Source: a virus. From it: DNA of 64,000 nt. Position numbers and translations under genes: made by a program. The notes under the pieces are model-generated. The model worked only from the letters and a program-made list of their open reading frames with translations. It was not told the origin of the DNA and made no database searches. The DNA is taken from the IMG/VR virus record IMGVR_UViG_3300027659_000017, positions 1 through 64,000 of that record; one strand, given 5' to 3'. Below are positions 10,350-58,894 of this stretch, in pieces (the first letter of the stretch is position 1; every line of letters starts with the position of its first letter).

Positions 10350-10864
10350 GTTTTACTAGACTATTTGATGTACAGAATGGAGTAGTTATTCCTACTGAAC
10401 ATTGCTATACACTAAAGGCACTTAAAGATGTAATGGATGAATACCCTGAAGAGTATCTTAAAATATACATGTATTTGTTTTATATGTGTTGTCCTAATCC
10501 CGATCTTAATCCTTTTTTCTTTACTCCGGATATTGATAAAGAAGCACTTATTATAGAACAAATAAATGGGGATTTCTCTACTGAAGATGACACAATCTAT
10601 ACAGCATTAAGATTCTGTGAGAGGATGTATGAAACACCTACATCCAGAGCTTACAAAGGAATTGCATCTATGCTAGATAGATTAGGGAGATATATGGAAA
10701 CTAGTCAGATTACTACGGGTAGAGATGGTAACTTTAACTCTTTAATTGCTGCAGCTAAGAACTATGATGCAATTAGACAATCATTTAAGGGTGCTTACAA
10801 AGATCTTCAAGATGAGCAACAGAGTAAAGTAAGAGGTGGACAAGGACTAGCATATGATATGTAA
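10346..10864 (+). CDS. conserved protein preceding terminase (possible small terminase)
   Basis: position directly before terL; helical; ends VRGG. Confidence 0.45.
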   Translation: MSFTRLFDVQNGVVIPTEHCYTLKALKDVMDEYPEEYLKIYMYLFYMCCPNPDLNPFFFTPDIDKEALIIEQINGDFSTEDDTIYTALRFCERMYETPTSRAYKGIASMLDRLGRYMETSQITTGRDGNFNSLIAAAKNYDAIRQSFKGAYKDLQDEQQSKVRGGQGLAYDM

Positions 10865-39101: not shown

Positions 39102-42100
39102 TGTATAATAAAAAAGTTCTTATTGATGCTCTCAAAACTCTGGGTACACCTTCTACACCTAAGAAGTATAACTTCAATGATGGAGGTGCAAAAAATACTG
39201 GATTAAATGAGGTACCATACAAACAAGTTAGTGTTAAGCCATCAAATGTTGCAGGTAAAGGTTTGTTTGCAGATGAGCCAATTAAGGCCGGAGAAATAAT
39301 TGGTCTTTCTCATATCAAATCTTTTTATGAAAGAGGTGGTCAGAATTATATGAAGAGTCAAGAGACACCGGTTGTAGGTAAGTATTATAATCACTCTGAT
39401 GATGCATTTAATGCTGGTTCTATTATTGAAGGTAACAAAAGATATTTAAGAGCTCTCAGAGATATTGAAGCTGGAGAAGAGATACTTGGTAATTACCGTG
39501 AAGATGATGATCCTTCATTGGAAAGTCCAGATGATTTTAAGAGAGGTGGTTCTTTACCAAGAATGCCTAGAAAGAAAAACTCCAGAGGGTATTCTAGAAG
39601 TTTAGAAGCTACAAATAAGTTCTTTACTGAAAATGCATTCTTTGCCAAACCTAAGTCAAGAAAGAATAAAGTATATGATCCTAATTCAAAATACTATAGA
39701 AAAGGAGGAGCTTCTTCTCCAGAAGAATGGGAACAAGAAATTAGAGCTATAGAAAGTCAAATAGGAAATCCTAAAAACTGGACTCTAGAGGATCGTAATC
39801 TTTTACAAGATAAACTTAATGCTTATAAAAACTGGAGAGAAACAACTCCAGAAGGACAAGCTGTTAAAGATTCTCATAATGTACCAGGTGAGTATGAGGC
39901 TTTTATACCTGAGCATTTAAACGGAGCTCCTTATAATACATCAGGTCCAAGATACATAGAAGAATCTATGGAACAATATCCTGTTGGTAGTGCACCAAAA
40001 GTATATGGGAATGAGCCGGAAGATTATCAAAGATTTTTAGATTACAATCAAACAGCTCCTGAAAACAGAAGAGGTTATGAAGAGTATAGATATGGAGATC
40101 CAAATTCATATGATCACTATGGTATGTGGGATGCTCTTGGTAAACCAAAAGATTTTCAAGAAGCTCTTCAAATGAATCCTGATTGGACACCAGATGAATA
40201 TGATGGATCATATCATGGATTCAGTGTTAATCCTAACACAGGTGTGTTTCTTAAATCTGGTAAACCTGGATTAAAACCTGGAGATACTACCTGGATGGAA
40301 ATAGCTGGACATTATCTTAGCCCTAGAGCAGATATAGACACACCAGTATTTGATCCAGAGATAGGTAGATTTAAATATGTTCCTAATGAAGAATATATTG
40401 AAACAAAACTTTCACCAGAAGACATAGACAAGTACGTAAAAGGAGGTTATATTGTTGAAGACATTTCTGTACCTAAACTTACTAAAGCTAGAACTGGTTT
40501 AGAAGTTATTAAAACAGCTTTACCTTTTCTTAAAAAAACTGCACCAACTATGTTAGATTTAAAAAATCTTCCAGTTGGTTTTAATCCATCTGAACTTTCA
40601 TTTCCATTATTAATTAATGGTTCAAGTGGTTTTATACATACTGCACCTAACAGAAAACTTAATGATAATCTTTTTCATTTTGCAGCTAGCATGAAAAACC
40701 CATTGGAAGCAGGAAGAGCATTCAATATAATCAATCAAGCTTTTCCGTTTGCCAATCCCTCAATATTAGAACCAGCTAGTTTAAGTCTTGACTCTTTGAA
40801 TCTTTTATTAAACATGGGTCAGAAACGTGATTGGGATATGAGGTATGCTGATCATCATATTCCATTAAACTTCTTTTCTGAACATAATGATTTATTTGGT
40901 GATCTTGGTAGTACTAGAAGTGCACTACATCAAGCAATAGGTTCACAGTCTAAAAAAACTGGTAATGAAATGGTAGATAGACTGAATGCATATCTAAATG
41001 GAAGAGGGATACAACAGAAAGCATATCTACAATCACATGCTCCAGGATTAAGACAAATCATGATTCCTAACTTTCAACTAACTAGAAAATATGCTAAAGG
41101 AGGAACTAAGAATAATCCACCTGTATTAGGATCTTTACTTAAAGCTGTTACAAGATCTAACTATAATCCATTAAGTATACCTATTAAGTTAGCTGGTGAA
41201 AAAATTGCTAGAATAGGTCCTTTACCTTATAGAACAAAAGATGAAATAATAAAAAGTTTAACAGGTAAAATGGAACCGGCTTATTTTGGGCAAACTGGTA
41301 TTTATGGTTCAGATTCATCATTATTTTGGAATGACCCAGATGGTCCATTAATGAAGGATATATATGGTCTAGGTAAAAGAGATTTAATAGCTAACTATTT
41401 TAGAGGTATTGATACAGGATTCAAACCAATTGAATATGACTTTAATAATGATCCTGGTCTACAAGCTGCCATAAAACAGTATGGTCCTTTAAAAGCTTAT
41501 GAACTTTTATCTCAACAAGCTCATGGTGAACCATTAGAAGATGGTCGTATTGGTTATGCATTACGTGTGCATAATGATGCTATGAAAAAGTATGGTTTTG
41601 ATCCAGCTTTGTTTATTAAATATAATGATTGGGACTTTCATAAATTTAATCCTCTTGGATCTCCAGAATTTATAAAACAAAGTTATCATGATTTGTTTGA
41701 TAGATATGGACAAGAAACTATTCCAATTGAAATTCAATCTGATGCTTCAAAAGGAAATCCTGAATTTATGATGGCAGGCAATCCAGTAACTCCAGCAGAT
41801 AATATTGGAGGTCATATGGGTTTCTTACAAAGAACACCTGAGGAAGAATTTAATTTTACCACAAGAGATTTGTGGGGATTCAGACCAGAAGCATACAATA
41901 GCAAATGGAATATGGATACCAAAATGAAACAAGGCCAAACACAATTGATGGATGCTTTTGGTAAACCCTTTGTTCTTACACAGACTAATCCTATTCAATT
42001 TAACACATATAAGAACTTTAAGAAGAAGTTCTTTAAGAAGGGTGGTGCTAAGACTAATCCACCACTTCTTGGTAATATGGCTAAGGCTATACAAAGAGGA

Positions 42101-44968
42101 TACAGCCCTAACTTAGTAAAGTCAATATTTGAGTTAAGTCAGAATGGTCAGAACTTGCAAGCATTAAATTATCTAAAAAATAATTACCTACGAAATATGG
42201 GTTCTTTAATGGATCTACCTGGAGCTGTGCAAGGTTCTACATTAGACTTACCACAACTTAATGCACAACAGATAGAAGCATTACTGCATCAGAAACCTAT
42301 GTTAGAAAGTGATTTTCTAACTCAATACAGTGGGTATAATCCTATACAATATGATGGAGGTTTACCAATTGTTACTGGGGGATTGACAGGTCATAAAACT
42401 TCATTCCAAAACTTTGACAGAAACTTTAGAGGAACAGGTTTTGGTAATCAAACGGGTGGTGTATATTTTACTACACAACCAACTGTTGCTGCTGAGAATG
42501 CTCAAATTAGTAGTATGGGTGGCTATGGATTTAATCCTAATACACCAACATTTACACCTCATATTTCAGAAGCTATATTTAAAAATCCTGATAAATTTTT
42601 ACAGTATAATGCACCCATAACAGAAGAATTGGCTAAATCTATTGGAATGATTAATGGCATAGATCCAAGAAATAGTGACACATTAGGACAGCTTGAAATT
42701 GATCTGAGAAAAAGTTTTTCAAAAACTGATGATTATAGTGATTATGATTTTGCTATGAAATCAGCTGCTGATGCTTTAAGAGAAAAAGGAATTGCAGGTT
42801 ATTTTGATCCAAGTGGTCGTATCCAAGAAATAGTGGCTTTTGATGAAGGTGATGTAAATAAAATAAAACAGTTTGAACTTTACAAAGATCTTGATGATGC
42901 TTTGATTATGGGATATCTGAAAGCAATTTCTAAAACTCCATCAACACAAACTGATGCAGAGAAAAAATTGGTTGCTGCATTTGAAGAGTATCTGAAAACT
43001 GGTAACAAACAACAACTAATAGATAGAAAGAAAGGTGGTGCACTACCACCATCTCTATTGAAGACTCTCAAAGGAGTTAGTAAATTGACTCCAGGTAATG
43101 CTTTAAGATCTACATTGTACTCTGCTGTTAATCCAGCTAGTTATAACATTCTAAAAAAAATAAAGGCTGCACCTCTTGAGCTATACAATAACATGATGTA
43201 CAATGATACTCGTCCCTTTAGAGTAGGTATGAGTTTAAAACATGGGGCTCCTGAATTAAGAGACAACATGTTAGAACATGTTCGTATGGATTTAAACCAG
43301 TGGAATAAAACTTCATTGGCAGATCAAATGGCTGCAATAAAAAATGCATATGGTAGCAAGCATTTGAACACATTAGAAGATATTGGAAGAAGAAGATTAG
43401 ATTCCTGGGCTGTAGGTTTGAAAAGACCACAGGAGCATAATACTTTAGAACAAGTGGGTGACAATACATTTAGAATGGTTGACACAGAATATACTCCTAT
43501 GTACTTAAATGAACTTTACAATGATCTATTAGCTACAAAAATTGAATCTGATCCTATGGCCAACGGCTTTGGTTCTGTTGTTGATGATGGACAATTCAGT
43601 CCACTAGAACAACTTAGTAGAGATCAGTTTAGAGTTAAGACACAATATTTTGCTTCTAATCCAGCAACAGTTCCGTACAGATTATCAGAAAAAGATAAGA
43701 TAGGATATCCAAATTGGAATAGAACAAGACATGCACAAGTTGATCCTATGGGTCTTTTATCTAAGATGACTACAGGTACGGTATATGACAATGACCGTTA
43801 TGGAGTAATGGGTGGTTACAATTGGAAAATTAATGAACATCCAGAAGGAATGGTTTTTCAAACCAATGACCTATGGGATTTAAATCCGTTTGAAAAAAGA
43901 ATAGATCCTATGTTAAATACTGATGCTCTTAAAAATAAGTATCTAAACATGCACTATTACAAACCATTCCAAAACTTTGAAGCACTTCGTGCAGTGGGTG
44001 GTAAACCATTTAACATACAGAACAATTTCTTGGTAGATCCTGATTCATTTAATGTACTAAGACAATGGGCAGAAGGTGGACCATTAAAAGGGGGTCCAGA
44101 AGAACCTATAACAGATTGTCCAGAAGGCTACACATATGATCCAGATAAATTGGGTTGTGTACCAATGTCAAGTGATGTACAAGATCCTGCTCAACAACAT
44201 ATTTCCAACTGGTGGATGAATAGAGAAATAAAATGGCCTGAGAATAATAAAGATTATCAAAACAATATGGAACAGATTCTTCCTACATCAAATCCAAATT
44301 CTCCTGTTATAGAGCAATTAAACAATTGGCCGGGTTATGTTTATACTGATAATTTACCAAGACCAGATGCTGGAGGTACATATGACACTTCAAAAAAAGA
44401 ACCAAGAATATTTGTAAGGAAAAGTTTTAGTCCTGAAATGAGATTGCAAACTGAAATACATGAAGGAACTTCACATGCCAATGCTCCAGTAGCAGATCAA
44501 TTATTTGATATGCATAATAGGATTATGAAACAAAATCTTATTCCAATAAATAAAGATTGGTCACCAGCACAAAAAGATTTTTACAATTATGTGACAGCAC
44601 CAGATGAAGATAACTACCACTCTTATCTTATGAATGCCAGAAAGATATTTAATGTAGATCCTAAACAAGTTGTAACTGAATCTGATATAAATAAATGGAG
44701 ACAACAAGCTGAAGAAAGTGGAATGATGGATAGAGAGAGTCCTAACTTTAATGAAGAGATTTACATTTTATTTAAATTCGCAAAAGATCCAGCATCATTG
44801 ACCAATATATTTAATTACATGGCAGAAAATAAAAATGAATCTGCTGAAGAAGGTCCACAGTATACTAAAGATGGTGGTAGTATTGACTACGAATTAGGTG
44901 ACACAGTAGATAAAGCTACTATGGAAAAATTAAAAGAATTAGGTTATACCTTTGAACAAATTAAGTGA
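39101..44968 (+). CDS. giant modular protein A, putative virion cargo (SET, ART-like, zincin-like, 2 x unknown domain)
   Basis: 1955 aa; modules separated by xKxGG tags. Confidence 0.7.
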   Translation: MYNKKVLIDALKTLGTPSTPKKYNFNDGGAKNTGLNEVPYKQVSVKPSNVAGKGLFADEPIKAGEIIGLSHIKSFYERGGQNYMKSQETPVVGKYYNHSDDAFNAGSIIEGNKRYLRALRDIEAGEEILGNYREDDDPSLESPDDFKRGGSLPRMPRKKNSRGYSRSLEATNKFFTENAFFAKPKSRKNKVYDPNSKYYRKGGASSPEEWEQEIRAIESQIGNPKNWTLEDRNLLQDKLNAYKNWRETTPEGQAVKDSHNVPGEYEAFIPEHLNGAPYNTSGPRYIEESMEQYPVGSAPKVYGNEPEDYQRFLDYNQTAPENRRGYEEYRYGDPNSYDHYGMWDALGKPKDFQEALQMNPDWTPDEYDGSYHGFSVNPNTGVFLKSGKPGLKPGDTTWMEIAGHYLSPRADIDTPVFDPEIGRFKYVPNEEYIETKLSPEDIDKYVKGGYIVEDISVPKLTKARTGLEVIKTALPFLKKTAPTMLDLKNLPVGFNPSELSFPLLINGSSGFIHTAPNRKLNDNLFHFAASMKNPLEAGRAFNIINQAFPFANPSILEPASLSLDSLNLLLNMGQKRDWDMRYADHHIPLNFFSEHNDLFGDLGSTRSALHQAIGSQSKKTGNEMVDRLNAYLNGRGIQQKAYLQSHAPGLRQIMIPNFQLTRKYAKGGTKNNPPVLGSLLKAVTRSNYNPLSIPIKLAGEKIARIGPLPYRTKDEIIKSLTGKMEPAYFGQTGIYGSDSSLFWNDPDGPLMKDIYGLGKRDLIANYFRGIDTGFKPIEYDFNNDPGLQAAIKQYGPLKAYELLSQQAHGEPLEDGRIGYALRVHNDAMKKYGFDPALFIKYNDWDFHKFNPLGSPEFIKQSYHDLFDRYGQETIPIEIQSDASKGNPEFMMAGNPVTPADNIGGHMGFLQRTPEEEFNFTTRDLWGFRPEAYNSKWNMDTKMKQGQTQLMDAFGKPFVLTQTNPIQFNTYKNFKKKFFKKGGAKTNPPLLGNMAKAIQRGYSPNLVKSIFELSQNGQNLQALNYLKNNYLRNMGSLMDLPGAVQGSTLDLPQLNAQQIEALLHQKPMLESDFLTQYSGYNPIQYDGGLPIVTGGLTGHKTSFQNFDRNFRGTGFGNQTGGVYFTTQPTVAAENAQISSMGGYGFNPNTPTFTPHISEAIFKNPDKFLQYNAPITEELAKSIGMINGIDPRNSDTLGQLEIDLRKSFSKTDDYSDYDFAMKSAADALREKGIAGYFDPSGRIQEIVAFDEGDVNKIKQFELYKDLDDALIMGYLKAISKTPSTQTDAEKKLVAAFEEYLKTGNKQQLIDRKKGGALPPSLLKTLKGVSKLTPGNALRSTLYSAVNPASYNILKKIKAAPLELYNNMMYNDTRPFRVGMSLKHGAPELRDNMLEHVRMDLNQWNKTSLADQMAAIKNAYGSKHLNTLEDIGRRRLDSWAVGLKRPQEHNTLEQVGDNTFRMVDTEYTPMYLNELYNDLLATKIESDPMANGFGSVVDDGQFSPLEQLSRDQFRVKTQYFASNPATVPYRLSEKDKIGYPNWNRTRHAQVDPMGLLSKMTTGTVYDNDRYGVMGGYNWKINEHPEGMVFQTNDLWDLNPFEKRIDPMLNTDALKNKYLNMHYYKPFQNFEALRAVGGKPFNIQNNFLVDPDSFNVLRQWAEGGPLKGGPEEPITDCPEGYTYDPDKLGCVPMSSDVQDPAQQHISNWWMNREIKWPENNKDYQNNMEQILPTSNPNSPVIEQLNNWPGYVYTDNLPRPDAGGTYDTSKKEPRIFVRKSFSPEMRLQTEIHEGTSHANAPVADQLFDMHNRIMKQNLIPINKDWSPAQKDFYNYVTAPDEDNYHSYLMNARKIFNVDPKQVVTESDINKWRQQAEESGMMDRESPNFNEEIYILFKFAKDPASLTNIFNYMAENKNESAEEGPQYTKDGGSIDYELGDTVDKATMEKLKELGYTFEQIK

Positions 44969-47900
44969 TGGCAAAATATAGAATAACAAGTATTCCTCAA
45001 TCATTACCACAAGCTCGTAAAGGAGGGTCATTAAAGTACAAGAAAGCAAAATCTGGTAAATTAAAAAATTTCTTCTTTGGTAATGAAGGTGATTATGATA
45101 ATATTGCCATGGATATGTTCAATACGGATATGATGAATGGATCTCCTAGAACTGCTGCCGGTAATCAACCTATGGTAGAAGTAGAAGGTGCACCACAACC
45201 ATCATACTGGAATATGCAGCAAGGATGTCCTCCTGGAAAATTCTCTTACAATGGTCAATGTTTTACAGAAGCCGAGTATGTAGAGTATTCTAAAAGAGAA
45301 ATGGAAGAGTACGAAAGAAGTATGAACCAGAAGAAAGCTGCTAGTCAACAAAGATTTGAAGGTATAGTTCAAGAAAACCAACAACGAGCACAAGAACAAA
45401 GTACTAGGTTAAATCAAGAAGAAACTGAAAGATACTATACTAATTTCAAAAACTCAAAGAAGTCTGATAAGATAGATCCATACATGTCCATTCCTAATTT
45501 GAATATGGATAGAATGGTGGATATGGTTGATCCAGAAGGTAATCCTGTTTTAGGGGAGGATGGTAAGCCACAGCAAGAAACTTTAGGAGATCAATTAAAG
45601 AAATCTTTTCTTATTAACGTTACAGAGAATGGATATACACAACTGTATCCAAAAGATATTGTCCATGACAGAATCGTTAAGCATGGTTTTCAAGCCGATC
45701 AGTTTAAGAATATCTGGGGATTAGATCCTAAACAAGTTAAAGAACAACTTGGAGATATAATGAAACTGGCTGATGAACAGTACACTAATACTGTTTTGAA
45801 CAAGGTTGCTAAAACTGCTATAGAAGAAGGTAAGTCACCGGAAGAAGTAATCAAATCTTTACCTACATCATGGGGAGGAAGTGAATTGACTAAATATATT
45901 AAGCCATCTCAAGAAGAGGTTGATAAAATCTATTCTGAATTTGTTAAACAAAGTTTAGAAGGTCTTCAAAAACAAATAGGTGTTAAGGAAGAGGATGGAA
46001 TGCTGCGGTATGACAGAAGTAAAAAAGCAGATAAACCAAAACTTGATTTTGATTTTGAAAGTGATATCTATTTAAATGCATATGATGATGATGGTACTTT
46101 AACAGCACAAGAAGTAGATCCTGTAAAAGCATATGCTCAGAAGTGGATAGCTTCAGGAAAGACTGCTAAAGAAAGATATGAAAGACAAATGCAAGTTGAT
46201 GCTATCAACCGTAAAGATTATTCAAAAACATATGATGAAGCAGTTAAAAATGATAAAACATTTAAAGAAACATTTAATATAGATGATATTAATTTAAATG
46301 CATCCGGAGAGGATATAAATAATATGCCTCCTTCAGATAGAATGCAAACACTTAAACTTAATGAGACACGTAGACTTAATGAGATCAATCAAAGCAATTC
46401 TGAGAGAGCTGAAGAAAATATAGGAGATAATGCTGTACAAACTAAACGTACTGAAGATTTAATAAAACTTACAGGTTTTACAGATGACTTTAATAAATTT
46501 ATGCAAGAACGGCAACGTTTAACTATGTATGGTGTATATAAAAATGCATTAACAGATTCAGGAATATCCTATGCAGATAAAGCTAAAGTTCTACAACATC
46601 TCAATGACAACAAAGGTGACTTAGCATATAACTATTTGTTTGACAGAAGCCGTGATGCTTCTGATCCCTTATCACAAAATAATTATAATTCTGAACTAGG
46701 TAGCTTAATGGGTGGAGAAGGTTATGGAAATCTTTTGACACAGCCAAAAATTCAACAAGGAAAAGCTCCAGGTGCCGATATTGGTGTAGGTGCTAAAACA
46801 TGGGATGTCTTAACCAATTGGGGTGATGCTGCTTATCATGGATTAAATGCTTTTATAGGTAATAAAGATTTTAGTGATAACATGTGGAGTATTCCAGGTA
46901 AATCTTTAAATGAAGTAAAAGCTGATGAAGAAAGATTAGGTATAGATCTAAGAGGTAACGATCAATTTAATGCTTCACTTGTACCTGAACTTTTAAATAA
47001 GTTAAATCCTTTGCATGCAGTAGATGAAATCTATAGAGGTTATAAAAGAAATGGACTTAAAGGAGCTTCATCTAAAGCAAGTAAAGCAGCATGGGATGCT
47101 ACTGAAACTGCAGCAATGTTTATTCCAGGGGGTCAAGGAATTAAATTACTACGTCAAGCATCTCTATTAAACAATACTCTAAATAAAGGTAGTCTATTAA
47201 ATAAAATTTCTAAAGGTTTTAATGGACTACAAAGAGGAATTAATAGTCTAGGTTTGCCTGGACAATATGTAACAAACTACTTTAACAAAAGTCTACCAGC
47301 ATTTGCTTTTGATGCAGTAAGACCATATGGTGAATTTCATGAAGGTTTTGAAAATTTAACAGAAGGAAAAACAACAGAAGGTTTAAAAAACTTGGGATGG
47401 GGAACACTTGGTATAACTCCATATATAAGTAAAATACCACGTATTGAATACCAAACTCCATCAGGTAGAACATTTGGTATTGGTAATACAGGAACAACTT
47501 GGACTACTGCACAAAATGAAAAACAATTTGCAGACTTAATGAAATCTAGTACACTTGATGATTTAAAAAAAGTTTATTCAGAAGAAAATCAAATTGCAGA
47601 AGCTGAACAAGCACTTAATAATGGAACAGCATTTCCAAATTATACATTTACACATCCGTTAAAAAGACAAGCTCAACTTTCTGATGATTTTCAAAATATG
47701 ACTAATCAAGAATTTGCTTTCAAAAATTTAGGATTTGCTCCAAAACCAGGAGGACCTTTTCAACTTGGAACTTTCAATAGCCCATTAAAATATTCAGGAA
47801 AACTCGGACAGTTACAATTTGGTACAGGAAAATTTTTTCCAGCTAAACTTCAGGGAATAGAATACAGACCTAATATACAGTATGATACTGCACCTATGAC

Positions 47901-50900
47901 TATTGGTTTTAGAAATGGAGGTTCTATTCCTAAAGCTAATGTAGGTATGATTGTTAGTGGACTGCAAAGTTTAGGTAACCCTACAAAGATGAAAACTGGT
48001 GGAGCATTACCACCACCTAACTTAGGTAAGATAGTAAAGGTAGCAAACAGTTTAGCAATTCCTACAAAACAGATGGTAAAGTCGTTACCAAGTATGGGTA
48101 ATCAACCTGGTTTAGAATGGTTACAAAGGTGGTATTCAAGTCCAGAGTTAGCAACAAGAATTTCAAACACTATTGATCCATCTTCTGCTTTTGATCTTAA
48201 AAAACATAGTGTTTCTTTAGAAAAGTTAATGGCAGCACAGCCTAAAACATATTCTCAATTAGCAGCAAAAAACGGTTTACTACAAACTATTCCTTATTAT
48301 ATAGGGACAGGTGGTTTGTACTCAGGTGGTAATTTATATATCAATCGTCTTTTATCTAAAGCAAATCAAGAGTCTTTTACAGCTCATGAAGGAACTCATT
48401 TATATGATGATCCAAGACATGCTGTAACCCAACCAACGGTAACACAAGAATGGATAGGACCTGATGGACAGAGAAGAGTTCAATTTGATGAAAATTCACT
48501 TGTCCAAGATGATTATCATTTAGATGCAAATGGAAGACCTACCTTTTTTAATCAAAAAGAAACCGAAATGTTATTAAAACCTTTTGGTCTTTCTAAACCT
48601 CCTTTGTATCCAAACAAAATGGATCTTTTTGGTAATGATTATTTTAGAAGATACTATACACATCCAGATGAAATTCATGCTAGAATGAACCAAGGTAGAT
48701 TTATGCTTAATAAATCTCCAGAAGATCCTTTTACATTAGATGATTTTAATAAAGTACAAACTTTAGAGGACTGGTTTGGAATGGGTAAACATATAACAGA
48801 TAAAAATGCTTTTCTGGATTTGATGAATAAATTCTATGGAGTTGTCCCTGCTGCAATAGTAGGTTCTCAACTACTAGATGAAGACACAGAACAAAGAAAA
48901 AAAGGAGGATCTACACCAAAAGCTAAAGCAAATCCACCAAGAGTATTGGGAAGAACAGTTCAAAGTATTAGTAGTATGTTGAAACCTACTTCTCAATTTA
49001 GAACTACCATGAATGCATTAGAAAATTTTGGAAGTACTTTACCTACAAATATGTCTCTTTTGAATTCAGTTGCTAAACCATTCCAAGGTATTAATAATCC
49101 TGTCATGGATTTAAATGTACAAGGCTTACTGAAGTCTCCAACTGATTTGGGTGGTACAGGAATAATAGGTTATGGAGATGACATACATAAAGGTGATCCA
49201 TGGTATCAAATAGATCCTGCAGATTATGGAGGAAGTGAGACATGGAGACAAGAAGGAAGAACTGATGCTGAAGGATCTATAGAAAGATATCTTGGTAATC
49301 TAAAACCATATGGACCGGATGCATTTAATAATATAGGAAACTTTGATTTTGAGATAGGATCAGATGGATGGAAAGCAAGAAATGCAATGATGGGAATGGC
49401 CAGTCCACTGTACCAACCTCAGAAAACTCTAGGCACAGGAGATTTTTATACATTTGATGAGTTCAGTAATTTAGTTCAAAAACAAACACAGTATTTAAAT
49501 GATAGAGCTGCTTTTGATGAAATGTATCCTGAAGACCCAGGTATGAGAATGTGGAATGCTTTACGTGGTGATACACAAAGAGATGAAATGTTTGCTAATT
49601 TATTTCCCAATTCTGGTATACAAAACTTTAAACAAAAGTTTTATACTCCAGAACTTTTAGATCTTATGAAAAAAACAGATCGAGATGAAAAAGGTAGAAA
49701 TTTATATGATCAATTGGTAAGTAATACAAACATGGGTGATAATAAAATGTTAAACATGAGGTCTTTAAATAGTGTAACAAAAGGAGAAGATACTTTACCT
49801 TCTACATACAAAGACTTAGTTGAGTACTTAAAACCTGATAGTTATTTATATACGGCTCCAGCTAAAGAGGTTGTTGGTGAAATGAGAGGAAGTCTTGGAC
49901 TAAAATTAGAAGACATTAATAATGCTACACCAGAGCAACTTGAAAAATGGAAACAAGAAATTATTAAAAAAATGTATGAACAAGCTAAAGAAAGATGGGA
50001 CAAAGATTCAACTATTCCTTTATCTGGTTATGATGCATATGAAAAATTCTTTAGTAGGTCAGGTTCTAAGAATAAACTTGGAGGAGCTATACCAAAAGCA
50101 CGACTGGGGTTAAGTGTAATTGGAAAGAATGTAAATAACATAGAAAACATTCTTAATGGTACAGCTAAATCAACAAATCTATTAAGACTAGTTGATAGAG
50201 CTATTACTCCGGTTGGTTATGGAATAGTTGGAAAAATGTTAGCATCTCCATTTACTTATATTAAACCTTATGTGCCGCAAACTTATGGTCTTAAGAATAG
50301 ATATGATGCATGGAATCTATATAATCAAATACAACCAAAATATGGAGGCCTGAGTCTTAATGAAGATGGTACAGTTGCGGTAAAAAACTTTGATATTTCA
50401 AAACCTATATTAGATCAAATAAGAAATTCAGAAAGAAACTCTTTTGAAACTGAAGAATTCAATAAGATGAATGGACATTTGGCAATTAACTTTGGTGGTG
50501 TTCATGGAAATGGTCTTGTAGCTAAAGGAGTTGATGATACTGGAAGACAGTATATGGATTTTACTGATACATGGGATTTACACCCTTTACAAAGATTTGG
50601 TAATTTGTTACCCAAGCCAATAAGAAATATTGAAGTTGGTCAAGTAACAGGTGGTAAACCTTTTGATCTTCGTAATAGAATTTACTTTGATGGAGAAGGA
50701 AATTATTTTAATCAAGATGGTACTCCATTAATTACATATAGTAAAGAAGTACCAGGATTTGACTATACAAATGGAGCATTACAGGTACAGCAAAATGCAT
50801 CAACAAGAAATATAAAAGAAATTGAATTACCAGATAATAAAAATGTTGAGTTTGTTGCAAGTTCAGGTGTACCTGAAAATGAATTTCAACAAGTAAATGA

Positions 50901-51219
50901 AGAATTTAATGATGCTTATCACCAGTCTAATTTAAACAAATTAGCTACAATAGGTATTGGTTTGGGAATAGGTGGTATTAATTCATTTATTGATTATCAA
51001 AATAACAAACCTATGCTAATGATTGATGTAAGAACTGGTAAGGTTGTTACTGTTACAAAAGCTGAGATGGAAGCAAACCCAGGTAGATACATTAGTACCA
51101 AAAATCTAAAACGTGGTGGTGCTATTTCCAAAAAGAAAACAGGTGGTGTAGTAACTGAGCTCACTAAAAAAGAAATAGAGCAATATGTTAAAGATGGCTA
51201 TATCATTGAAGATTACTAA
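44968..51219 (+). CDS. giant modular protein B, putative virion cargo (hydrophobic region, HExxH zincin, unknown domains)
   Basis: ATG 44968 overlaps previous TGA; HEGTH; GG tags. Confidence 0.7.
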   Translation: MAKYRITSIPQSLPQARKGGSLKYKKAKSGKLKNFFFGNEGDYDNIAMDMFNTDMMNGSPRTAAGNQPMVEVEGAPQPSYWNMQQGCPPGKFSYNGQCFTEAEYVEYSKREMEEYERSMNQKKAASQQRFEGIVQENQQRAQEQSTRLNQEETERYYTNFKNSKKSDKIDPYMSIPNLNMDRMVDMVDPEGNPVLGEDGKPQQETLGDQLKKSFLINVTENGYTQLYPKDIVHDRIVKHGFQADQFKNIWGLDPKQVKEQLGDIMKLADEQYTNTVLNKVAKTAIEEGKSPEEVIKSLPTSWGGSELTKYIKPSQEEVDKIYSEFVKQSLEGLQKQIGVKEEDGMLRYDRSKKADKPKLDFDFESDIYLNAYDDDGTLTAQEVDPVKAYAQKWIASGKTAKERYERQMQVDAINRKDYSKTYDEAVKNDKTFKETFNIDDINLNASGEDINNMPPSDRMQTLKLNETRRLNEINQSNSERAEENIGDNAVQTKRTEDLIKLTGFTDDFNKFMQERQRLTMYGVYKNALTDSGISYADKAKVLQHLNDNKGDLAYNYLFDRSRDASDPLSQNNYNSELGSLMGGEGYGNLLTQPKIQQGKAPGADIGVGAKTWDVLTNWGDAAYHGLNAFIGNKDFSDNMWSIPGKSLNEVKADEERLGIDLRGNDQFNASLVPELLNKLNPLHAVDEIYRGYKRNGLKGASSKASKAAWDATETAAMFIPGGQGIKLLRQASLLNNTLNKGSLLNKISKGFNGLQRGINSLGLPGQYVTNYFNKSLPAFAFDAVRPYGEFHEGFENLTEGKTTEGLKNLGWGTLGITPYISKIPRIEYQTPSGRTFGIGNTGTTWTTAQNEKQFADLMKSSTLDDLKKVYSEENQIAEAEQALNNGTAFPNYTFTHPLKRQAQLSDDFQNMTNQEFAFKNLGFAPKPGGPFQLGTFNSPLKYSGKLGQLQFGTGKFFPAKLQGIEYRPNIQYDTAPMTIGFRNGGSIPKANVGMIVSGLQSLGNPTKMKTGGALPPPNLGKIVKVANSLAIPTKQMVKSLPSMGNQPGLEWLQRWYSSPELATRISNTIDPSSAFDLKKHSVSLEKLMAAQPKTYSQLAAKNGLLQTIPYYIGTGGLYSGGNLYINRLLSKANQESFTAHEGTHLYDDPRHAVTQPTVTQEWIGPDGQRRVQFDENSLVQDDYHLDANGRPTFFNQKETEMLLKPFGLSKPPLYPNKMDLFGNDYFRRYYTHPDEIHARMNQGRFMLNKSPEDPFTLDDFNKVQTLEDWFGMGKHITDKNAFLDLMNKFYGVVPAAIVGSQLLDEDTEQRKKGGSTPKAKANPPRVLGRTVQSISSMLKPTSQFRTTMNALENFGSTLPTNMSLLNSVAKPFQGINNPVMDLNVQGLLKSPTDLGGTGIIGYGDDIHKGDPWYQIDPADYGGSETWRQEGRTDAEGSIERYLGNLKPYGPDAFNNIGNFDFEIGSDGWKARNAMMGMASPLYQPQKTLGTGDFYTFDEFSNLVQKQTQYLNDRAAFDEMYPEDPGMRMWNALRGDTQRDEMFANLFPNSGIQNFKQKFYTPELLDLMKKTDRDEKGRNLYDQLVSNTNMGDNKMLNMRSLNSVTKGEDTLPSTYKDLVEYLKPDSYLYTAPAKEVVGEMRGSLGLKLEDINNATPEQLEKWKQEIIKKMYEQAKERWDKDSTIPLSGYDAYEKFFSRSGSKNKLGGAIPKARLGLSVIGKNVNNIENILNGTAKSTNLLRLVDRAITPVGYGIVGKMLASPFTYIKPYVPQTYGLKNRYDAWNLYNQIQPKYGGLSLNEDGTVAVKNFDISKPILDQIRNSERNSFETEEFNKMNGHLAINFGGVHGNGLVAKGVDDTGRQYMDFTDTWDLHPLQRFGNLLPKPIRNIEVGQVTGGKPFDLRNRIYFDGEGNYFNQDGTPLITYSKEVPGFDYTNGALQVQQNASTRNIKEIELPDNKNVEFVASSGVPENEFQQVNEEFNDAYHQSNLNKLATIGIGLGIGGINSFIDYQNNKPMLMIDVRTGKVVTVTKAEMEANPGRYISTKNLKRGGAISKKKTGGVVTELTKKEIEQYVKDGYIIEDY

Positions 51220-51260
51220 ACTTTATAAGTTTATCCATTAAATTAAATTTTAGTATATTT
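51217..51260 (+). promoter_or_regulatory. TAAAC-N7-GTTTA palindrome plus TTTAGTATATTT promoter motif
   Basis: palindrome 51217-51233 in intergenic gap. Confidence 0.55.
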
Positions 51261-51276
51261 ATATATATAAGAAAAT

Positions 51277-54200
51277 ATGAAGAAGCAAGTAAGGATTAGA
51301 AAAGCCCTTCCAGGAGAGACCCCGGGTTACTATAACAAGACTGCTAAGTTTTTAAAAAAGGCAGCCATGGGTATGGAAGTTTCTACTACACGTACAGATC
51401 CGGCTAGAATAAATCAAATATATGATCATGTATATATCTCCTTAAAGAATGATGGAGATGCAGATACATTATATTACCAACTACTTAATCAGTATGCATT
51501 AGATAACAATACAGCATCAATGCTTATTGATTCTGCTATGGCTAAACTTGCTGATGAAGGATATGTTGATCCTGATACTGTTAAAACTGAAGATACAGAA
51601 GGAGCAGAAGGACAACCACAGGATCCTCAGAAAAAAGCAAATGAAGATGCAGAAAGAGCAGCTTCAGATGCTGAACAAGAAGAGTTGGCAATGTCCAATG
51701 ATATTTATGCTGAGGATGAGGAAAGAATGAATGATACCTCACACTTAGAGACTGAACAAGCCCAACAAGAACAAGGTTTTAAAACAGGTGGTTATTATGA
51801 TGAAGGTGGTGAAAGTGAGGAAGATGATTCTCAGTATGTTGATCCTGAGCAAGCAGCATTAGATCAATACTACTATCCGGGTACTCAGATGCAGAGACCT
51901 TTCTCTATGGAAGAGTTACTAGCTAACACACCAGGGGTGCAGAATAATGAGATTCCAGACATACGTTATTACATGCCTGACTATAATCCTGTGTCTAGTT
52001 ATTATCAAGCAGAAGATTACTTACCTACAGGAGCAGAGGGAGGAGTCACTCCTCCAATAAAAAATCTTTTTTCTGGATTAGGTTCTAAACTTACATTACC
52101 TATTATTCCAACAGGTAACCCATTAACAAACCTTTCAGCAGCTCGTAAGATAATTTCTCCTTTTACATTACTTGGAGAAGGTATGACAAGATTGCCATAT
52201 CTAGGAGCTAAGTTTACACCAAAACTAACAACTCCATTTACTCAGAATAGAACTGAGTTATGGAATGTTCTTAACGGTGCTACCCCTAAATTAGGAACAT
52301 TCAGTCAGAATGGTACTATGATTGGTGGAGCTGATGGAAGTTTGCAAGCAGATAGATTGTTATTGTATCAGGATGACGTTAAGAAAATAACCGAGAAATT
52401 AAAATATGGTGAGAATAACTTTACATTAGGTGACATATATCCTACTGCTGAACAAGATGGTTTAGTTAGTGGTATATATCCAATGGAAACAAAAATCATT
52501 GGTGGAGTAGATGACAATGGTAATCAGTTTTTTGAACTCAAGCATGGATTTGGACCAAATCAAAAGTTACCTTTTGGAACAACTTCTACTAAAGCTAAAG
52601 AAGTTACATTTAAGAATAGGTTCTATTATAACACAGATCCTGAAACTGGTGGTCTTAAGATTTTTGATCCTCTTGGTAATGAGTTAATGGCAGGTGTACA
52701 AACTAAGTCACATGTTAATAGAGGAGTATTACCTTCTTGGCTTAGTGCAAACCGTGATGTTGTAGGAAGAGACATGAACTTAAGTGGAGAAGGTACACCA
52801 TTTCCTAGTTATTTTGATTCAGTTGGAAAATTTGGACGAACAAATAATATAACAGGACTTCCTCCACTTACATGGAATGATCTCAGCACTAGAGGAAAAA
52901 TTGGTAGAGGTATTGAAACATTTGCAACTACCGGTCTAAATCAATTCTTTAGAACAGGTGCAAAGAACATACAGCAAGTAGACTATCCTGTATATGGATA
53001 TGCAAATGCTGCATTGGGTCCAAACATTCAGAACCCGGCATCTATTCCTTTTTCTCAAACAGCATCTGATATTAAGAATGCTATTAACTACAAGTACAGA
53101 TTAGGATTAAAAACAGCATTGTATGCTGGTATTCCATCTTATTTAGGCTATCAGATATATGACTCATTTGCAAATCCATGTCAATGTGATGATGCTAATG
53201 AACCTAACTTCATGGCCAAGGATACATTTGGTAAATGTCCATGTGGTACAGATGTGGGACCAACAAGAGTCTTAGATCCAGAAGCTATACCGGTAGAAGA
53301 AAATACTGTAGAACCAAGTGACTTGGAAAGACCTGATAGTATTCAATTCTTAGAAGGCCAACATCCATCTGACTATAATTACTACAGATACAATGATTCA
53401 AATATTGTTAATCCAAATATTCAAAATGAAGCTATAGGAGATGACTTTAAGAAAGGTGGTGTAACTAAGAACAGATTCATTAAGAAAATGGTTGAGATGT
53501 ATGCCGAAGGTGGTGATACTGATTTAGGACTATTTGGTCAAGGTAAACGTACAGATACCTTAACTGATGATGTTACAAATAGAAAGACTTCTTTCTTAAA
53601 TACATTAAAGAATAATTCAAACAAAGCAGTATCTGCAGATATCTATAAAAATGCCCAAGGAAATCCACAGGTTCTAAACATGTTGATGAAAGATGGTCCT
53701 AAAGAAAATCTTGCAGAAGATGCATTTGAAACAAATAAGTTAAGCACTGATCCTACTGCAGCATATGGGGGATTCATTGATATGGATTCTGATGATCCTC
53801 TTACAAAATTTATTTATGGAGGAGATGAGACTGAGTACTATGAGCCATATGGATTAACTCAAGCAAGAGATGGTATTACTATTCAGAATAGAGCAGGAGA
53901 TCTAAGAGGTGTGCAAGGTCAAATGGACTTTGATGAATGGTCTCAAGGAGAACAAGAAGATTGGGAAGCTGCAAATCCAGGTGAAGATTTTGAAGCATGG
54001 AGAAGCAGTCCAGAAGCACAGGATTCATATATTAATTACATTAATTTTTATAATGATTCTTTGGATGAGTACTTTAATGAGGGTCAGAGAACAAGAACAT
54101 TTGATCCTAATGCACCTGGTGTAGTGTCTGATACTTTTAATCCTTGTGGTCCGGGTACAGTTTGGAGTAAAACATACCAAACATGTGTCCCAAAAGCTAC

Positions 54201-55386
54201 AATAAATCCCATCCCTACACCAGTAAGAATGCCTCAAGGTTTATTCAGAACACTAGCTCCTTGGAATCCAGCATTAACTGCAGCTGGATCATGGGTAAAA
54301 CAAAAAGGTACTCCATACTATATCAATGATGGTCAATCATACAATGGTCTAATGCCTTCAACACCTGTAGCTAGTTATACTACCAAAGCAGGTAGAAATG
54401 GTGAACGTAAGAAATGGCTTGATATCTATGAAGTAGATGGTGATGGTACAGGTACTGAAGTTCCTATGGAAGATTTAAGTCAGTTTGAACAGATGATGAG
54501 ACATCGTCCTAATAAAGCTGGTAAGAAACCTAGCCGTAAAGAATATCTTAACTCAAAGTTGAGAGAAGATTCTTGGAACAATGAAAATTGGGATCAATTA
54601 TCTGAAAGAGATAAGAGAGCAGCTAGAAATACCTACACATTTGAAAATGAAGATGAGAGAAACTTGTGGGATAATATAAGATATAGAGCTCAAGGAACTA
54701 GATATAGTGAATCTGGTAGAACCAAAAAAGTAAAAGAAAGAAGATTGGGTGGTGAAAGTGAATCCACTAATGGCTTTGGTAACAGTTCTAATTCATCTGT
54801 ACTAGACCCATTCTCTGCATCAGGAAATCTATCTGCAAATCAGTCTCAAGCAAATTCATTAGGTCAGCCCCCTATTAATTATAACCCTATGGGAGATAAT
54901 CCTTTTTCTTTTGATAAAGAACAAGGACATACCCTAGGTAAATCTGAAAATGCTGGAGATAAAAAATATGTAGGTGTTGAACGGAAACGAAAGGATATCT
55001 ACAATCTTGACCCTGAAGGTATGATCAATGTTGGTAATAATGCTGCCAGAGGTGTATTAGGTGCCTGGGATAGAATAAAGAATGCAAAGATTGAGTTCAA
55101 TAACACTCTAGACATCACAGATCCGTATAATAACTATGCATCATCTTATGATATTAGAAAAGGAAACTGGAATGACACTGGACATAAAGCAGGTTCATTG
55201 AATTATGATCAAAAAGGTTCTGATAGAAATAGTCAATCAACCTTTGGTAGTGGTAAAAGATATGGTGGTTATATGGCCTATGGTGGTTATACTGAACCAG
55301 GATATGAAGATGACGAAGAAGTTTACATGACTCCAGAAGAACTAGAACAATTCTTAGCAGCAGGAGGACAAGTTGAATATTTATAA
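51277..55386 (+). CDS. giant protein C with ~12 GG tags, putative virion cargo
   Basis: 1369 aa; acidic/low-complexity, one TM-like segment. Confidence 0.7.
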   Translation: MKKQVRIRKALPGETPGYYNKTAKFLKKAAMGMEVSTTRTDPARINQIYDHVYISLKNDGDADTLYYQLLNQYALDNNTASMLIDSAMAKLADEGYVDPDTVKTEDTEGAEGQPQDPQKKANEDAERAASDAEQEELAMSNDIYAEDEERMNDTSHLETEQAQQEQGFKTGGYYDEGGESEEDDSQYVDPEQAALDQYYYPGTQMQRPFSMEELLANTPGVQNNEIPDIRYYMPDYNPVSSYYQAEDYLPTGAEGGVTPPIKNLFSGLGSKLTLPIIPTGNPLTNLSAARKIISPFTLLGEGMTRLPYLGAKFTPKLTTPFTQNRTELWNVLNGATPKLGTFSQNGTMIGGADGSLQADRLLLYQDDVKKITEKLKYGENNFTLGDIYPTAEQDGLVSGIYPMETKIIGGVDDNGNQFFELKHGFGPNQKLPFGTTSTKAKEVTFKNRFYYNTDPETGGLKIFDPLGNELMAGVQTKSHVNRGVLPSWLSANRDVVGRDMNLSGEGTPFPSYFDSVGKFGRTNNITGLPPLTWNDLSTRGKIGRGIETFATTGLNQFFRTGAKNIQQVDYPVYGYANAALGPNIQNPASIPFSQTASDIKNAINYKYRLGLKTALYAGIPSYLGYQIYDSFANPCQCDDANEPNFMAKDTFGKCPCGTDVGPTRVLDPEAIPVEENTVEPSDLERPDSIQFLEGQHPSDYNYYRYNDSNIVNPNIQNEAIGDDFKKGGVTKNRFIKKMVEMYAEGGDTDLGLFGQGKRTDTLTDDVTNRKTSFLNTLKNNSNKAVSADIYKNAQGNPQVLNMLMKDGPKENLAEDAFETNKLSTDPTAAYGGFIDMDSDDPLTKFIYGGDETEYYEPYGLTQARDGITIQNRAGDLRGVQGQMDFDEWSQGEQEDWEAANPGEDFEAWRSSPEAQDSYINYINFYNDSLDEYFNEGQRTRTFDPNAPGVVSDTFNPCGPGTVWSKTYQTCVPKATINPIPTPVRMPQGLFRTLAPWNPALTAAGSWVKQKGTPYYINDGQSYNGLMPSTPVASYTTKAGRNGERKKWLDIYEVDGDGTGTEVPMEDLSQFEQMMRHRPNKAGKKPSRKEYLNSKLREDSWNNENWDQLSERDKRAARNTYTFENEDERNLWDNIRYRAQGTRYSESGRTKKVKERRLGGESESTNGFGNSSNSSVLDPFSASGNLSANQSQANSLGQPPINYNPMGDNPFSFDKEQGHTLGKSENAGDKKYVGVERKRKDIYNLDPEGMINVGNNAARGVLGAWDRIKNAKIEFNNTLDITDPYNNYASSYDIRKGNWNDTGHKAGSLNYDQKGSDRNSQSTFGSGKRYGGYMAYGGYTEPGYEDDEEVYMTPEELEQFLAAGGQVEYL

Positions 55387-55394
55387 GCAAACCA

Positions 55395-58300
55395 ATGATA
55401 AAAGTTAGAATTAAAAAATTGCCGAAGGCAAAAACAGGATACCAACTTCAAGGAGCTTTGGTTAATGATGTTCCTGCAATGGGAGGAGCAGATTACAATG
55501 CATACATTGGTAAAGAAAAACTTAGAGAGAGTAAATATATTACTGCTGTTCCAAGAGATAAAGCTAATCTAGAGGCTGAGGGAGGTGAAACTGTTTACGG
55601 TGACATCAATGGAGATGGAATGCCGGAACATAAAATCATCAAAGGACCAAGACACCATGCTGGTGGAGTACCACTAAGTCTTCCTGAAGATACATTTATC
55701 TTTAGTGATACAAGAAGTATGAGAGTTAAGGACCCGACAATACTTGCTATGTTTGGTAAGTCTCCTGGTAAGTCTTATACCCCAGCTGAATTGGCTAAAC
55801 AATATGATATCCAGAAGTACAGAAAGATTTTAGAAGATCCTGATACAGATGCAATAGAAAGAAAGTCTGCTGAGTTGATGATCAAAAAGTATGTTATTAA
55901 GTTAGGATGTCTTGCTCTTGCACAAGAGTCAATGAAAGGATTCCCACAAGGGATTCCTGTTGTTGCTAAACCATGTATGGAAGCAAGAGGTATTACAGAA
56001 GAACAAATCTTGCCAAGTAAAGAAATCTCTGGTTTGAATGATCAGCTGAAGAAACAAATGGAGCAGCAACAGAATTCTGAAGAGACAATGGAATCAGAGA
56101 ATCAGCAGAATCCTATGGAAGAAGCTCAGGAGATGAACCAAGGTCAACCAGTAGCTCAAGCACAACAAAGTCCATCACCAGAAGCAATGATGAGATTTGG
56201 TGGTATGAGAAGATTGAGAAGAGCTGCAGAAGGAATGATGCAACCATCTCCAGAAGAGATGGCTATGATGCAACAACAACAGCAACAACCACAACAAGGT
56301 GGGGGTGATGAGATGATGCAAATCATGCAAGAGGTTCAGGCTGCACTACAAAGAGGTGCACAACCTAATGAAGTTGTTATGAGTTTATTACAGAATGGTC
56401 TTCCACCTGAAGCTATAGTACAGATATTTACACAACTTGGTGCTTCACAAGAAGAGGCTGTGGGTATTATCCAACAAGCTATGTCTCAACAACAAGGTGG
56501 TGGAGAAGATCCAATGATGGCTCAAGGTCCTCCAATGTCTGAGCAAGAAATGATGCAGCAACAAGGAGCTCCAATGGCAATGTATGGTATGTCTATGGGA
56601 GGGTATGATATGCCTTTCTATGATATTCCACAAGCTGAGTATGGTATGGCAATGGGTGCTAACCCACAAAACTATCAAGGAAGACAAGGTAGAGTACCTT
56701 CTACAGGTCCTATGTACAATTTAGCTAAAGCACAAAATGGTGTAGAAACACCTGCACCAATTGTCATTGATGGTACTGCAATGACTGATGCACAAATTGA
56801 ACAAGAAATTTGGAACATTAAACAAAAAGACCCAAATGCTGTAGTACATGTTAAACGTAAGGATGAAAAAGGAAATGTTAAAACACAAGTATTAAAACAA
56901 TCTGGTTTTACAGTTCCTACTGGAAAAGATCTTGATGCTGCTGGTTTAGAGGGGTTCCCTGATACACCAAATGGTAGAATGGCAGCTGCACAGTATTTAT
57001 TGATTAAAGAAAATATGTCTAACCCAGCGGTTAGAAAAGAAATGATTGCTAATACAAGATCAGTTGTTGAAAATCCAGAAGCTTGGAGAGGAAAAGGTTC
57101 AACAAGTGCCGATCCAAATGATAAATGGTCTGTTAAATACGGTACTGAACCAACTGATGAGGAAATCATTAATGCTTCTTTGATGTTAAATAAAAGAAAC
57201 TTGATGTTCCAAGCAAATGATGTGGATCCTCAATTGTTTTCTGACGTAGGTAATAAATTAGATGACCCAGCTACTGTAGTTAGTGAAGGTTATATAAATC
57301 CTAAAACACAAAAACCTTATACTACAACAGAGGCAACAGCTGCTATTAATGATTTAAGAAGTAAAGGTTTTACAAGTGTAGCCACAATGGCACAAAATCT
57401 TGGAGTTCCATTGGATCCAAGAGGTAAAGACAGAGTACTTCAACAATCTACAATGCATGCTTATGCACTTTCACATAAAAACTTTAGTGAAGGTAAATAT
57501 GATAACGACCCTAATACAAAGTATGCAATGGATAACTTCTTGGGTAATGTTAATCAAGTACAATCCGGAGCTGGTGATGAATCTACTATGGGAGGTTTAT
57601 ATGGTGCATTAGGTAATAAGATTTCACCTCTTGATGACGAGTATGATTATTCAAATAACAATTGGTATCAAACAAATTCAAGAGGTAGTCTTCAAAGAGG
57701 TAAATATACAACTTGGGGTGATACTCAAGCTGGTGAATACTTTATGGTAGGTAAAAGAAGTCAAGTTTATGACGATTTACCAGCAGATCCAAACTGTCAA
57801 TGTGAAGATCAAAGTAAACCTAACTATAGTACATACAAAGATGACAAAGGAAACTGTACATGTACACCACCTACTGAAGTAAAGAATTGTCCTTGTGTTA
57901 AATCAGATGGTACTGAGATAAACATGACACCTAATCCGGATAATACATGTCCTCCTTGTACTGAAGATAAGCAAGTTCCAGTTCCTAAACCTCCTGCTGA
58001 GTTTTGGTTGCAAGATACAATCAAGACTGCTGGTGCATTTGGGGATTTGATGGGTGTTAAAAAATACATGGGATGGTCACCGGGAATGGATTACAAAAAT
58101 CCACGACCTACATTCTTAGATCCTACAAGAGAACTTGCTGCCAATTCAGAACAAGCAGGTATTCAATCTCAAGCATTAGGTCAATTTGCTGGGTCACAAG
58201 CATTGTCTGCAAGATCAGCAGGTATTCAAGGTCAAGCTGGCAAGAATGCTGCAGATATACTTTCTAAGTATAACAATGCTAATGTCAACATAGCAAATCA

Positions 58301-58838: not shown

Positions 58839-58852
58839 ACTTTAGAGGTTTA
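58836..58852. promoter_or_regulatory. TAAAC-N7-GTTTA palindrome
   Basis: taaac-tttagag-gttta at start of intergenic gap. Confidence 0.5.
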
Positions 58853-58894
58853 TTAAACTTATAAAATTTTAATAGTTTTACACAAACATAAATT

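Follow-up and report, generated by a model that had tools for sequence, protein, structure and literature searches.

The stretch of DNA analysed here, referred to as the window, covers the opening 64 kb of an IMG/VR virus record of 97,955 bases (IMGVR_UViG_3300027659_000017; the record is rated about 82% complete). From position 33657 on it carries nine giant plus-strand open reading frames (ORFs) consecutively, designated Z, A, B, C, D, E, F, G and H. At the A/B, B/C and C/D junctions the upstream protein ends in a short conserved element, the tail, and the downstream protein begins with another, the basic head. The initial annotation, made from the letters of this DNA alone, had quoted these termini and proposed that they dock head to tail, acidic to basic, and chain cargo proteins for ordered packaging or ejection. 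The quoted termini were present at the genes named, and the same ends were found in 13 plus 80 related loci. Sequence comparison pointed to a conserved joint module inside which the gene borders fall. The features of A to D are listed here.

39101-44968, plus strand: A, 1955 amino acids (aa), probably the first cargo protein; no basic head, an internal joint and a C-terminal tail
39254-39496, plus strand: SET domain of A, residues 52-132 (PF00856, 30 bits)
40397-40498, plus strand: unsplit joint in A, residues 433-466; the tail module followed directly by I-S-V-P-x-L-T-K-A-x-x-G
44894-44965, plus strand: tail of A, divergent type, ending L-G-Y-T-F-E
44968-45027, plus strand: head of B, basic strand plus L-P-Q-A-x-x-G-G
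44968-51219, plus strand: B, 2083 aa, hypervariable, with several internal K-x-G-G plus P-K-A-x-x-G leaders
51145-51216, plus strand: tail of B, profile match
51277-55386, plus strand: C, 1369 aa; the head is the first 28 residues and the tail the last 23
55315-55383, plus strand: tail of C, profile match
55395-58838, plus strand: D, 1147 aa, the last head-bearing protein
55395-55502, plus strand: D residues 1-36, the head; L-P-K-A-K-T-G lies between a basic strand and a conserved extension
55527-56009, plus strand: folded N-terminal domain of D, residues ~45-205
58794-58835, plus strand: C-terminal motif of D, GG, about ten residues, then P-F-I-L; differs from the tail

Tails are carried by A, B and C and heads by B, C and D, that is, n-1 of each, at the inner junctions only. 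Both in the window and in relatives, A is without a head and D without a tail. The ATG of B overlaps the TGA of A. As the initial annotation had stated, D does not end in the tail; its own conserved end has GG first and later P-F and a hydrophobic residue. The shared basic start ascribed to B, C and D was also recovered, since a head pattern (M, one to three residues, V/Y-R-I, basic or polar residues) matched three of the 78 window ORFs, exactly these three. A tail profile run against the six-frame translation of the window found four copies only, the same four on which it had been trained, with the next best match below 6 bits. Leave-one-out profiles built from three copies within the window failed to recover the fourth. 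Therefore, statistics from the window by itself are weak, and the weight of the argument rests on the relatives. The end motif of D and the start of E together make up a conserved junction of a different type, present in all relatives; the N-terminus of E (58895-58970) is almost invariant (M-A-T-Y-L-Q-G-V-T-D-Y-I-P) and faintly resembles the start of crAss001 gp46.

The tail comprises about 21-25 residues and reads as a hydrophobic-acidic strand, a helix of the form L-T-x-E-E-I-x-x-Y, a G-G or G-Y turn and a strand of the Y-I-V-E-D type. The strand-helix-G-strand motif originally described stood only in part. For the unsplit joint of A (85 residues, eight sequences) AlphaFold2 (AF2) predicted the helix, at low confidence (pLDDT, the per-residue confidence, 58), and no strands, and it supported no stand-alone mini-domain for the isolated joint. 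Internal tail copies are followed directly by one of three sequences, I-S-V-P-x-L-x-K-A-x-x-G (the commonest), L-P-x-A-Q-x-G or x-D-Y-K-x-G-G, and at gene borders the next protein begins with M-x-K-V-R-I-K-K-L-P-x-A-x-x-G or a variant. The border heads align residue by residue with the internal I-S-V-P-x-L-T-K-A, with basic residues replacing S, P and E. The P-K-A-x-x-G leader also recurs within A and B after K-x-G-G. Judged from these alignments, the joint has three parts. It opens with an acidic strand-helix-GG-strand module, continues through a short spacer and closes with a P-x-A-x-x-G element that ends in glycine. The gene borders fall inside the joint: at A/B, B/C and C/D it is interrupted by a stop and a start codon, and elsewhere it is unbroken within proteins.

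We built a joint profile from 33 internal joints and searched it in 1.84 billion proteins. It matched 847 cluster representatives at E ≤1e-3 and 485 at 1e-10. Among the best 150 matches two copies per protein were usual (111 proteins), with three or four copies in 31 proteins; 109 tail copies lay at the very C-terminus and 214 were internal. The internal copy in A, previously read as a fused junction, is a genuine unsplit joint; relatives conserve it, and the family has hundreds of such internal copies. It therefore represents the normal unsplit state of a widespread module. The proposed check whether relatives split A at this copy came out negative, as none of the eight relatives with the internal copy does so. 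Much shorter A proteins ending at the first joint exist (relative L072; loci of relatives are cited by L numbers).

The relatives comprised 13 IMG/VR loci obtained through an alignment of C and 80 of the 223 found through the D N-terminal domain. An IMG/VR search with the C sequence alone gave no match, and alignment-based searches succeeded. The same gene chain, with the same heads and tails at the same junctions, was present in the 13 plus 80 loci. In 84 C homologues, with identity down to about 31%, the first 28 and last 23 residues were near-invariant. Identities to the window protein were averaged over relatives, with ends taken as the first or last 20 residues. They reached 79% for the head and 69% for the tail of B against 16% for the whole protein, 90% and 82% against 43% for C, and 66% for the first and 56% for the last 20 residues of A against 19% for the whole of A. 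The first 20 residues of D showed 82% identity. Within A the internal joint stands out at 55% identity, and it is kept in eight relatives where its flanks are unconserved. The bodies range in length from 933 to 1955 aa for A and from 863 to 2083 aa for B. Seven GG pairs of C (177, 727, 745, 831, 848, 1336 and 1363) are invariant in 19 diverged homologues, and aromatic-x-GG motifs punctuate crAss001 gp45 too.

The fraction of identical residues encoded by the same codon was 0.56-0.77 at the ends versus 0.60-0.67 in conserved body columns, and the C/D junction alignment showed ordinary synonymous changes. Synonymous variation at the ends is thus normal, and the constraint therefore acts on the peptide. 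The codon test ruled out that the coding ends hold a DNA or RNA element. Fusion by read-through or frameshift at A/B and C/D was likewise rejected: the A frame stops again a few codons past its TGA, and no slippery site was seen. In some relatives C or B is split in two frames with the tail-coding end kept (L023, 9100-10003; for the B gene, L009, L011, L020 and L021); these broken frames are probably frameshifts or assembly errors. From these comparisons we firmly conclude that a conserved joint module, selected as a peptide, recurs within and at the ends of the cargo proteins across a large clade of uncultured crAss-like phages.

The assignment of A to D as cargo draws on the genes around them. 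PHROG matches were obtained for the large terminase (10864-13068, 1.2e-56), the portal (13075-15822, 3.9e-97) and the major head protein (17196-18812, 1.1e-31). A tblastn search with the window portal recovered portals of crAss-like phages, 22-33% identical to it, with Leptolyngbya phage Lbo-JY46 and phage csAssE-Sib as the closest named genomes. By its portal, terminase and major capsid protein matches, the virion module is crAss-like (Crassvirales-type). Searches of 50,697 deposited phage genomes by tblastn with B, the D domain and E gave no match; the clade of the window phage is known from metagenomes only. Its low G+C content hints at a host among the Bacteroidota. The upstream edge of the cargo block is formed by one gene.

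33657-39101, plus strand: Z, 1814 aa, with PHROG virion structural protein matches; homologous to the crAss muzzle protein (gp44)

The N-terminus of Z matched crAss001 gp44 with 27% identity over 147 aa (E 1e-4), and the stop of Z overlaps the start of A. A to D, lying directly 3' of this muzzle gene, therefore occupy the slot of the crAss001 cargo gene gp45. Among A to D, a Pfam scan found SET as the one domain of A, and B, C and D were without any Pfam domain. When 40 members of the A family were surveyed with Pfam, the domains between the joints varied from relative to relative, as follows (members of 40).

SET, 6
VanY, 5
SLT, 3
Phage_lysozyme2 (tail lysozyme), 3
Phage lysozyme, 3
PG-binding, 2
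ART-PolyVal, 1
YkuD, 1

The SET-domain methyltransferase of A is a candidate for an injected host-modifying enzyme. Judged by its Pfam matches, the A-family set corresponds to what ejected internal virion proteins and polyvalent proteins (PMC5512222) carry. Taken as a whole, A to D are probably cargo that a distant crAss-like phage holds in its virion and ejects, with swappable bodies and a conserved joint.

We then considered whether the two halves of a cut joint find each other. The 79 loci contained 245 unique junctions between large ORFs. Both tail and head were positive at 86 of them; most of the 22 discordant rows proved to be threshold artefacts when read by eye, and no clear tail followed by a non-basic head was seen among the 245. 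In unsplit joints the halves adjoin and form a single module. C-D fusion proteins (L062/66/68, L077/78 and L089) are without the tail and without the basic strand, and the fused junction reads K-x-G-G-P-K-x-K-T-G. In the tree the fused forms L062 and L066 make one clade nested among split forms; the tree covers neither L077 nor L089, and BLAST places both nearest other fused forms. In the clade of L043, L050, L051, L061 and L067 the C tail has no last strand and the D head has no strand. An E-to-K change in the tail strand of L090 and L092, compared with L081, coincides with an R-to-Q change in the strand of the following head. The loss of tail and head elements together in two lineages fits head-to-tail docking.

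On this basis we tentatively favour the possibility that the cut halves re-associate in trans, keep A, B, C and D in order and act like one long gp45-type protein. Each tail would meet the basic head of the following protein, likely by strand pairing helped by charge, and the separately translated cargo proteins would be held in the fixed order A-B-C-D. The N-terminal domain of D may anchor the chain at the portal, and the chain would behave as one gp45-type cargo protein in packaging and ejection.

The anchor step concerns the N-terminal part of D. Residues 45-205 had a predicted fold with pLDDT >90, and the conserved residues 1-36 had pLDDT 41-46; a head that is conserved yet predicted disordered suits a peptide that takes up its fold upon binding a partner. 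A VIA comparison of the D domain with the portal-bound domain of gp45 (7qog chain M, 433-552) gave Z 5.0 and a root-mean-square deviation of 5.4 over 92 residues (22% identity). This match ranked fourth, among many helical matches of equal Z. Neither a Foldseek search of the PDB nor a profile search of PDB sequences with the D domain gave a match, and hhalign against the gp45 family alignment returned the same colinear alignment with a probability of only 0.17%, which is not significant. PF25725 (crAss_CARG1, threshold 27 bits), to which crAss001 gp45 scores 222 bits, did not match D, C or the csAssE-Sib protein described below at E ≤10 and had no match in the whole 98-kb record. We treat D as a gp45-type portal anchor as a lead and not as a result.

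The D profile matched one protein of phage csAssE-Sib (E 3e-8).

OR575929.1, 79508-82348 (L108, 24509-27349): 946-aa 'hypothetical protein' with a basic head, a glycine-rich hydrophobic stretch and a D-type domain

Its layout of basic head, glycine-rich membrane-like stretch and domain is the layout of gp45. Going by its name, csAssE-Sib may belong to the epsilon group. The 946-aa protein is likely its gp45-type cargo protein. In the epsilon group the gp45-type cargo protein was reported as undetectable (PMC10172136).

A further step, which we regard as possible and rather doubtful, is that the split joints clip the cargo into a non-covalent train that is anchored by D at the portal and sets the order of exit before the DNA. 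Cell-wall enzymes, effectors and channel-forming proteins would in such a train leave the capsid in order, ahead of the DNA.

Several points limit the docking reading or weigh against strict pairing of tail and head. The link between the D domain and the portal-bound domain comes down to the Z score of 5.0. A complex prediction for D 1-240 with C 1300-1369, each with its own separate alignment, scored 0.03, which counts neither for nor against binding. Mutual information, summed over the top five values, was 1.03 and 1.44 for adjacent pairs, 0.78 and 1.02 for non-adjacent pairs and 1.24 for tail with tail; gaps from the forced alignment dominate these sums, and the comparison of adjacent with non-adjacent ends does not decide. 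Joint-loss events are few, two or three. Basic heads also follow basic ends of the GG-D-x-x-K-L-x-K-F type (L028, L035, L038/39 and L062/66) and yet other ends in L055 and L083. The close relatives L028 and L032 share the head, and the tail is found in L032 alone. The csAssE-Sib and crAss001 gp45-like proteins have basic heads while the genes upstream of them are without a tail. Since heads are present without an upstream tail, the head is independent of the tail, and acidic-to-basic pairing is no rule. About two thirds of the tail copies in the best 150 matches are internal, and some internal tails are followed by x-D-Y-K-x-GG and not by the leader; the tail therefore has a role in cis beyond linking gene products. 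Of the cargo chaining proposed at the outset, the cargo slot (from the muzzle homologue and the crAss-like module) and the tie of the motifs to junctions held up, and the acidic-to-basic rule did not.

The basic C-terminus mentioned above, of the K-K-G-G-D-x-P-K-L-x-K-F type, stands in place of the acidic tail on the protein before C in L028, L035, L038, L039, L056, L062 and L066. It looks like the second half of a joint placed at a C-terminus, in several separate clades.

The explanation that comes closest to trans docking, and that we consider nearly as likely although somewhat unlikely in itself, is that tails and heads serve separately as address or anchor peptides, each binding a common virion component or priming ejection in the N-to-C direction, and do not bind each other. 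The portal, the lumen of the tail barrel, the inner capsid surface and the packaged DNA would be the candidate partners, and gene borders would lie at joints only because joints are flexible borders between modules. The heads without upstream tails and the mostly internal tails, repeated two to four times per protein, are in line with this, as are the isolated joint and the D head, both predicted unstructured. In crAss001, short segments of gp45 dock on the rings of the tail barrel and a domain docks on the portal (PMC10172136). Independent peptides give no account, however, of why A is headless and D tailless, or of the loss of tail and head together in the fusions and in the strand-less clade.

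It is unlikely, in our judgement, that the joints are maturation sites at which a protease cuts at or near the glycine pairs, the natural gene ends mimicking processed ends, with the result that every mature fragment would have similar termini. The helix-GG part may resemble double-glycine leader peptides, and the core polyproteins of adenovirus and African swine fever virus (ASFV) are cut at GG. The GG pairs are strikingly conserved, including the seven invariant ones in C. Both A and B contain repeats of K-x-G-G with P-K-A-x-x-G after it, and the fused C-D junction is K-x-G-G-P-K-x-K-T-G. Peptidases of families C39, C48 and C5 were, however, unmatched at E ≤1 in the 98-kb record, itself about 82% complete, and Pfam scans of virion genes and giants turned up no protease. 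A cut after the GG of a terminal tail would moreover free only five or six residues, and mass spectrometry of crAss001 virions found peptides across gp45 (PMC10172136).

Still less probable is that the conserved ends are the constant regions of a cassette, homology arms for swapping the bodies, with peptides that have no binding role. Between conserved ends, both the sequence and the length of the bodies are hypervariable, and their domain content differs between relatives, as a cassette would have it, but synonymous sites are no less variable at the ends than in other places and the peptide motif is kept in very distant relatives with different DNA. A chance likeness among a handful of protein ends, acidic at the C-terminus and lysine-rich at the N-terminus, in an AT-rich genome would sit well with the failure of the leave-one-out profiles in the window and is refuted by the orthologous junctions in about 90 loci and the 847 matching clusters.

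The remaining features concern transcription and the neighbouring genes.

51218-51276, plus strand: conserved non-coding B/C spacer; a short hairpin after the B stop, then an AT-rich promoter-like box
E, 1062 aa
F, 2502 aa
G, 3623 aa
H, 2113 aa

A hairpin of the form AAACTT, 4-6 bases, AAGTTT follows the stops of both B (51218-51276) and D (58837-58894), and after both hairpins an AT-rich box lies about 25 nt upstream of the next ATG. The spacer is 46-65 nt long, mostly 55-60, and its length and motif were kept in the roughly 20 relatives checked. In contrast, Z/A and A/B overlap, and the C/D gap is 8-10 nt. This pattern of spacers and overlaps suggests the transcription units Z-A-B, C-D and E onward. 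Proteins F, G and H (62089-86813 of the record, partly past the window) were without PHROG matches, phmmer searches of PDB sequences with Z, F, G and H gave no match, and the sole Pfam matches in F to H were DUF7831 in G and LysM in H. No polymerase signature was found in F, G and H, which are presumably the virion RNA polymerase-associated proteins of the clade. A 455-aa protein of the tail region (28627-29994) gave a weak C1q-domain match of 20.5 bits, under the cut-off, and may be a receptor-binding tip.

The pair of end peptides offers a concrete handle on how crAss-type podophages store megadaltons of protein in the head and eject it in order before the DNA, being small enough for binding assays and present in hundreds of uncultured phages, with natural fused and split forms that serve as controls. 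If the joints are docking or address tags, they could be used for loading foreign proteins into such capsids; if they are cleavage sites, they would reveal a polyprotein strategy in a phage lineage without a known one. A cargo train, if true, would be a protein-level device for ordering, and we know of none described for any phage.

The internal proteins of phage T4, which vary greatly, are packaged in the head and are injected, share a short conserved capsid targeting sequence. It sits at the N-terminus only, and the prohead protease removes it. Here, in contrast, there are N- and C-terminal elements and internal copies, and PHROG and Pfam scans recognised no prohead protease among the virion genes of the window. 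Polyvalent proteins (Iyer et al. 2017, PMC5512222) are giants encoded next to virion genes, with mixed effector and lytic domains, a mixture seen here across the A family; A of the window has one recognised catalytic domain, SET. As far as searched, that paper has no conserved joint, matched end motif or crAss-like phages.

The gp45 protein of crAss001 is the cargo protein C1, a single chain spanning tail and portal, and the order of ejection was said only to be likely set by packing and mutual interactions (Bayfield et al. 2023, PMC10172136). A to D resemble it in their slot directly after the muzzle gene, in a lysine-rich N-terminus and in a sequence punctuated by GG pairs. The fused C-D relatives and the csAssE-Sib protein add to this likeness a head, a long N-terminal region and then the domain. 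A to D differ from gp45 in that here four proteins total about 6500 residues, compared with one of 842, and in that the tail profiles detected no tail module in gp45.

The docking domains of polyketide synthases and non-ribosomal peptide synthetases (PKS/NRPS) offer a second comparison. A virion is not an enzyme line, and no kinship in sequence or fold is expected; here, the tail also occurs many times inside proteins, and its binding is proposed from sequence. The likeness lies in the arrangement: short C-terminal elements on one protein and N-terminal elements on the next one encoded, colinear with gene order, with fused and split forms among relatives.

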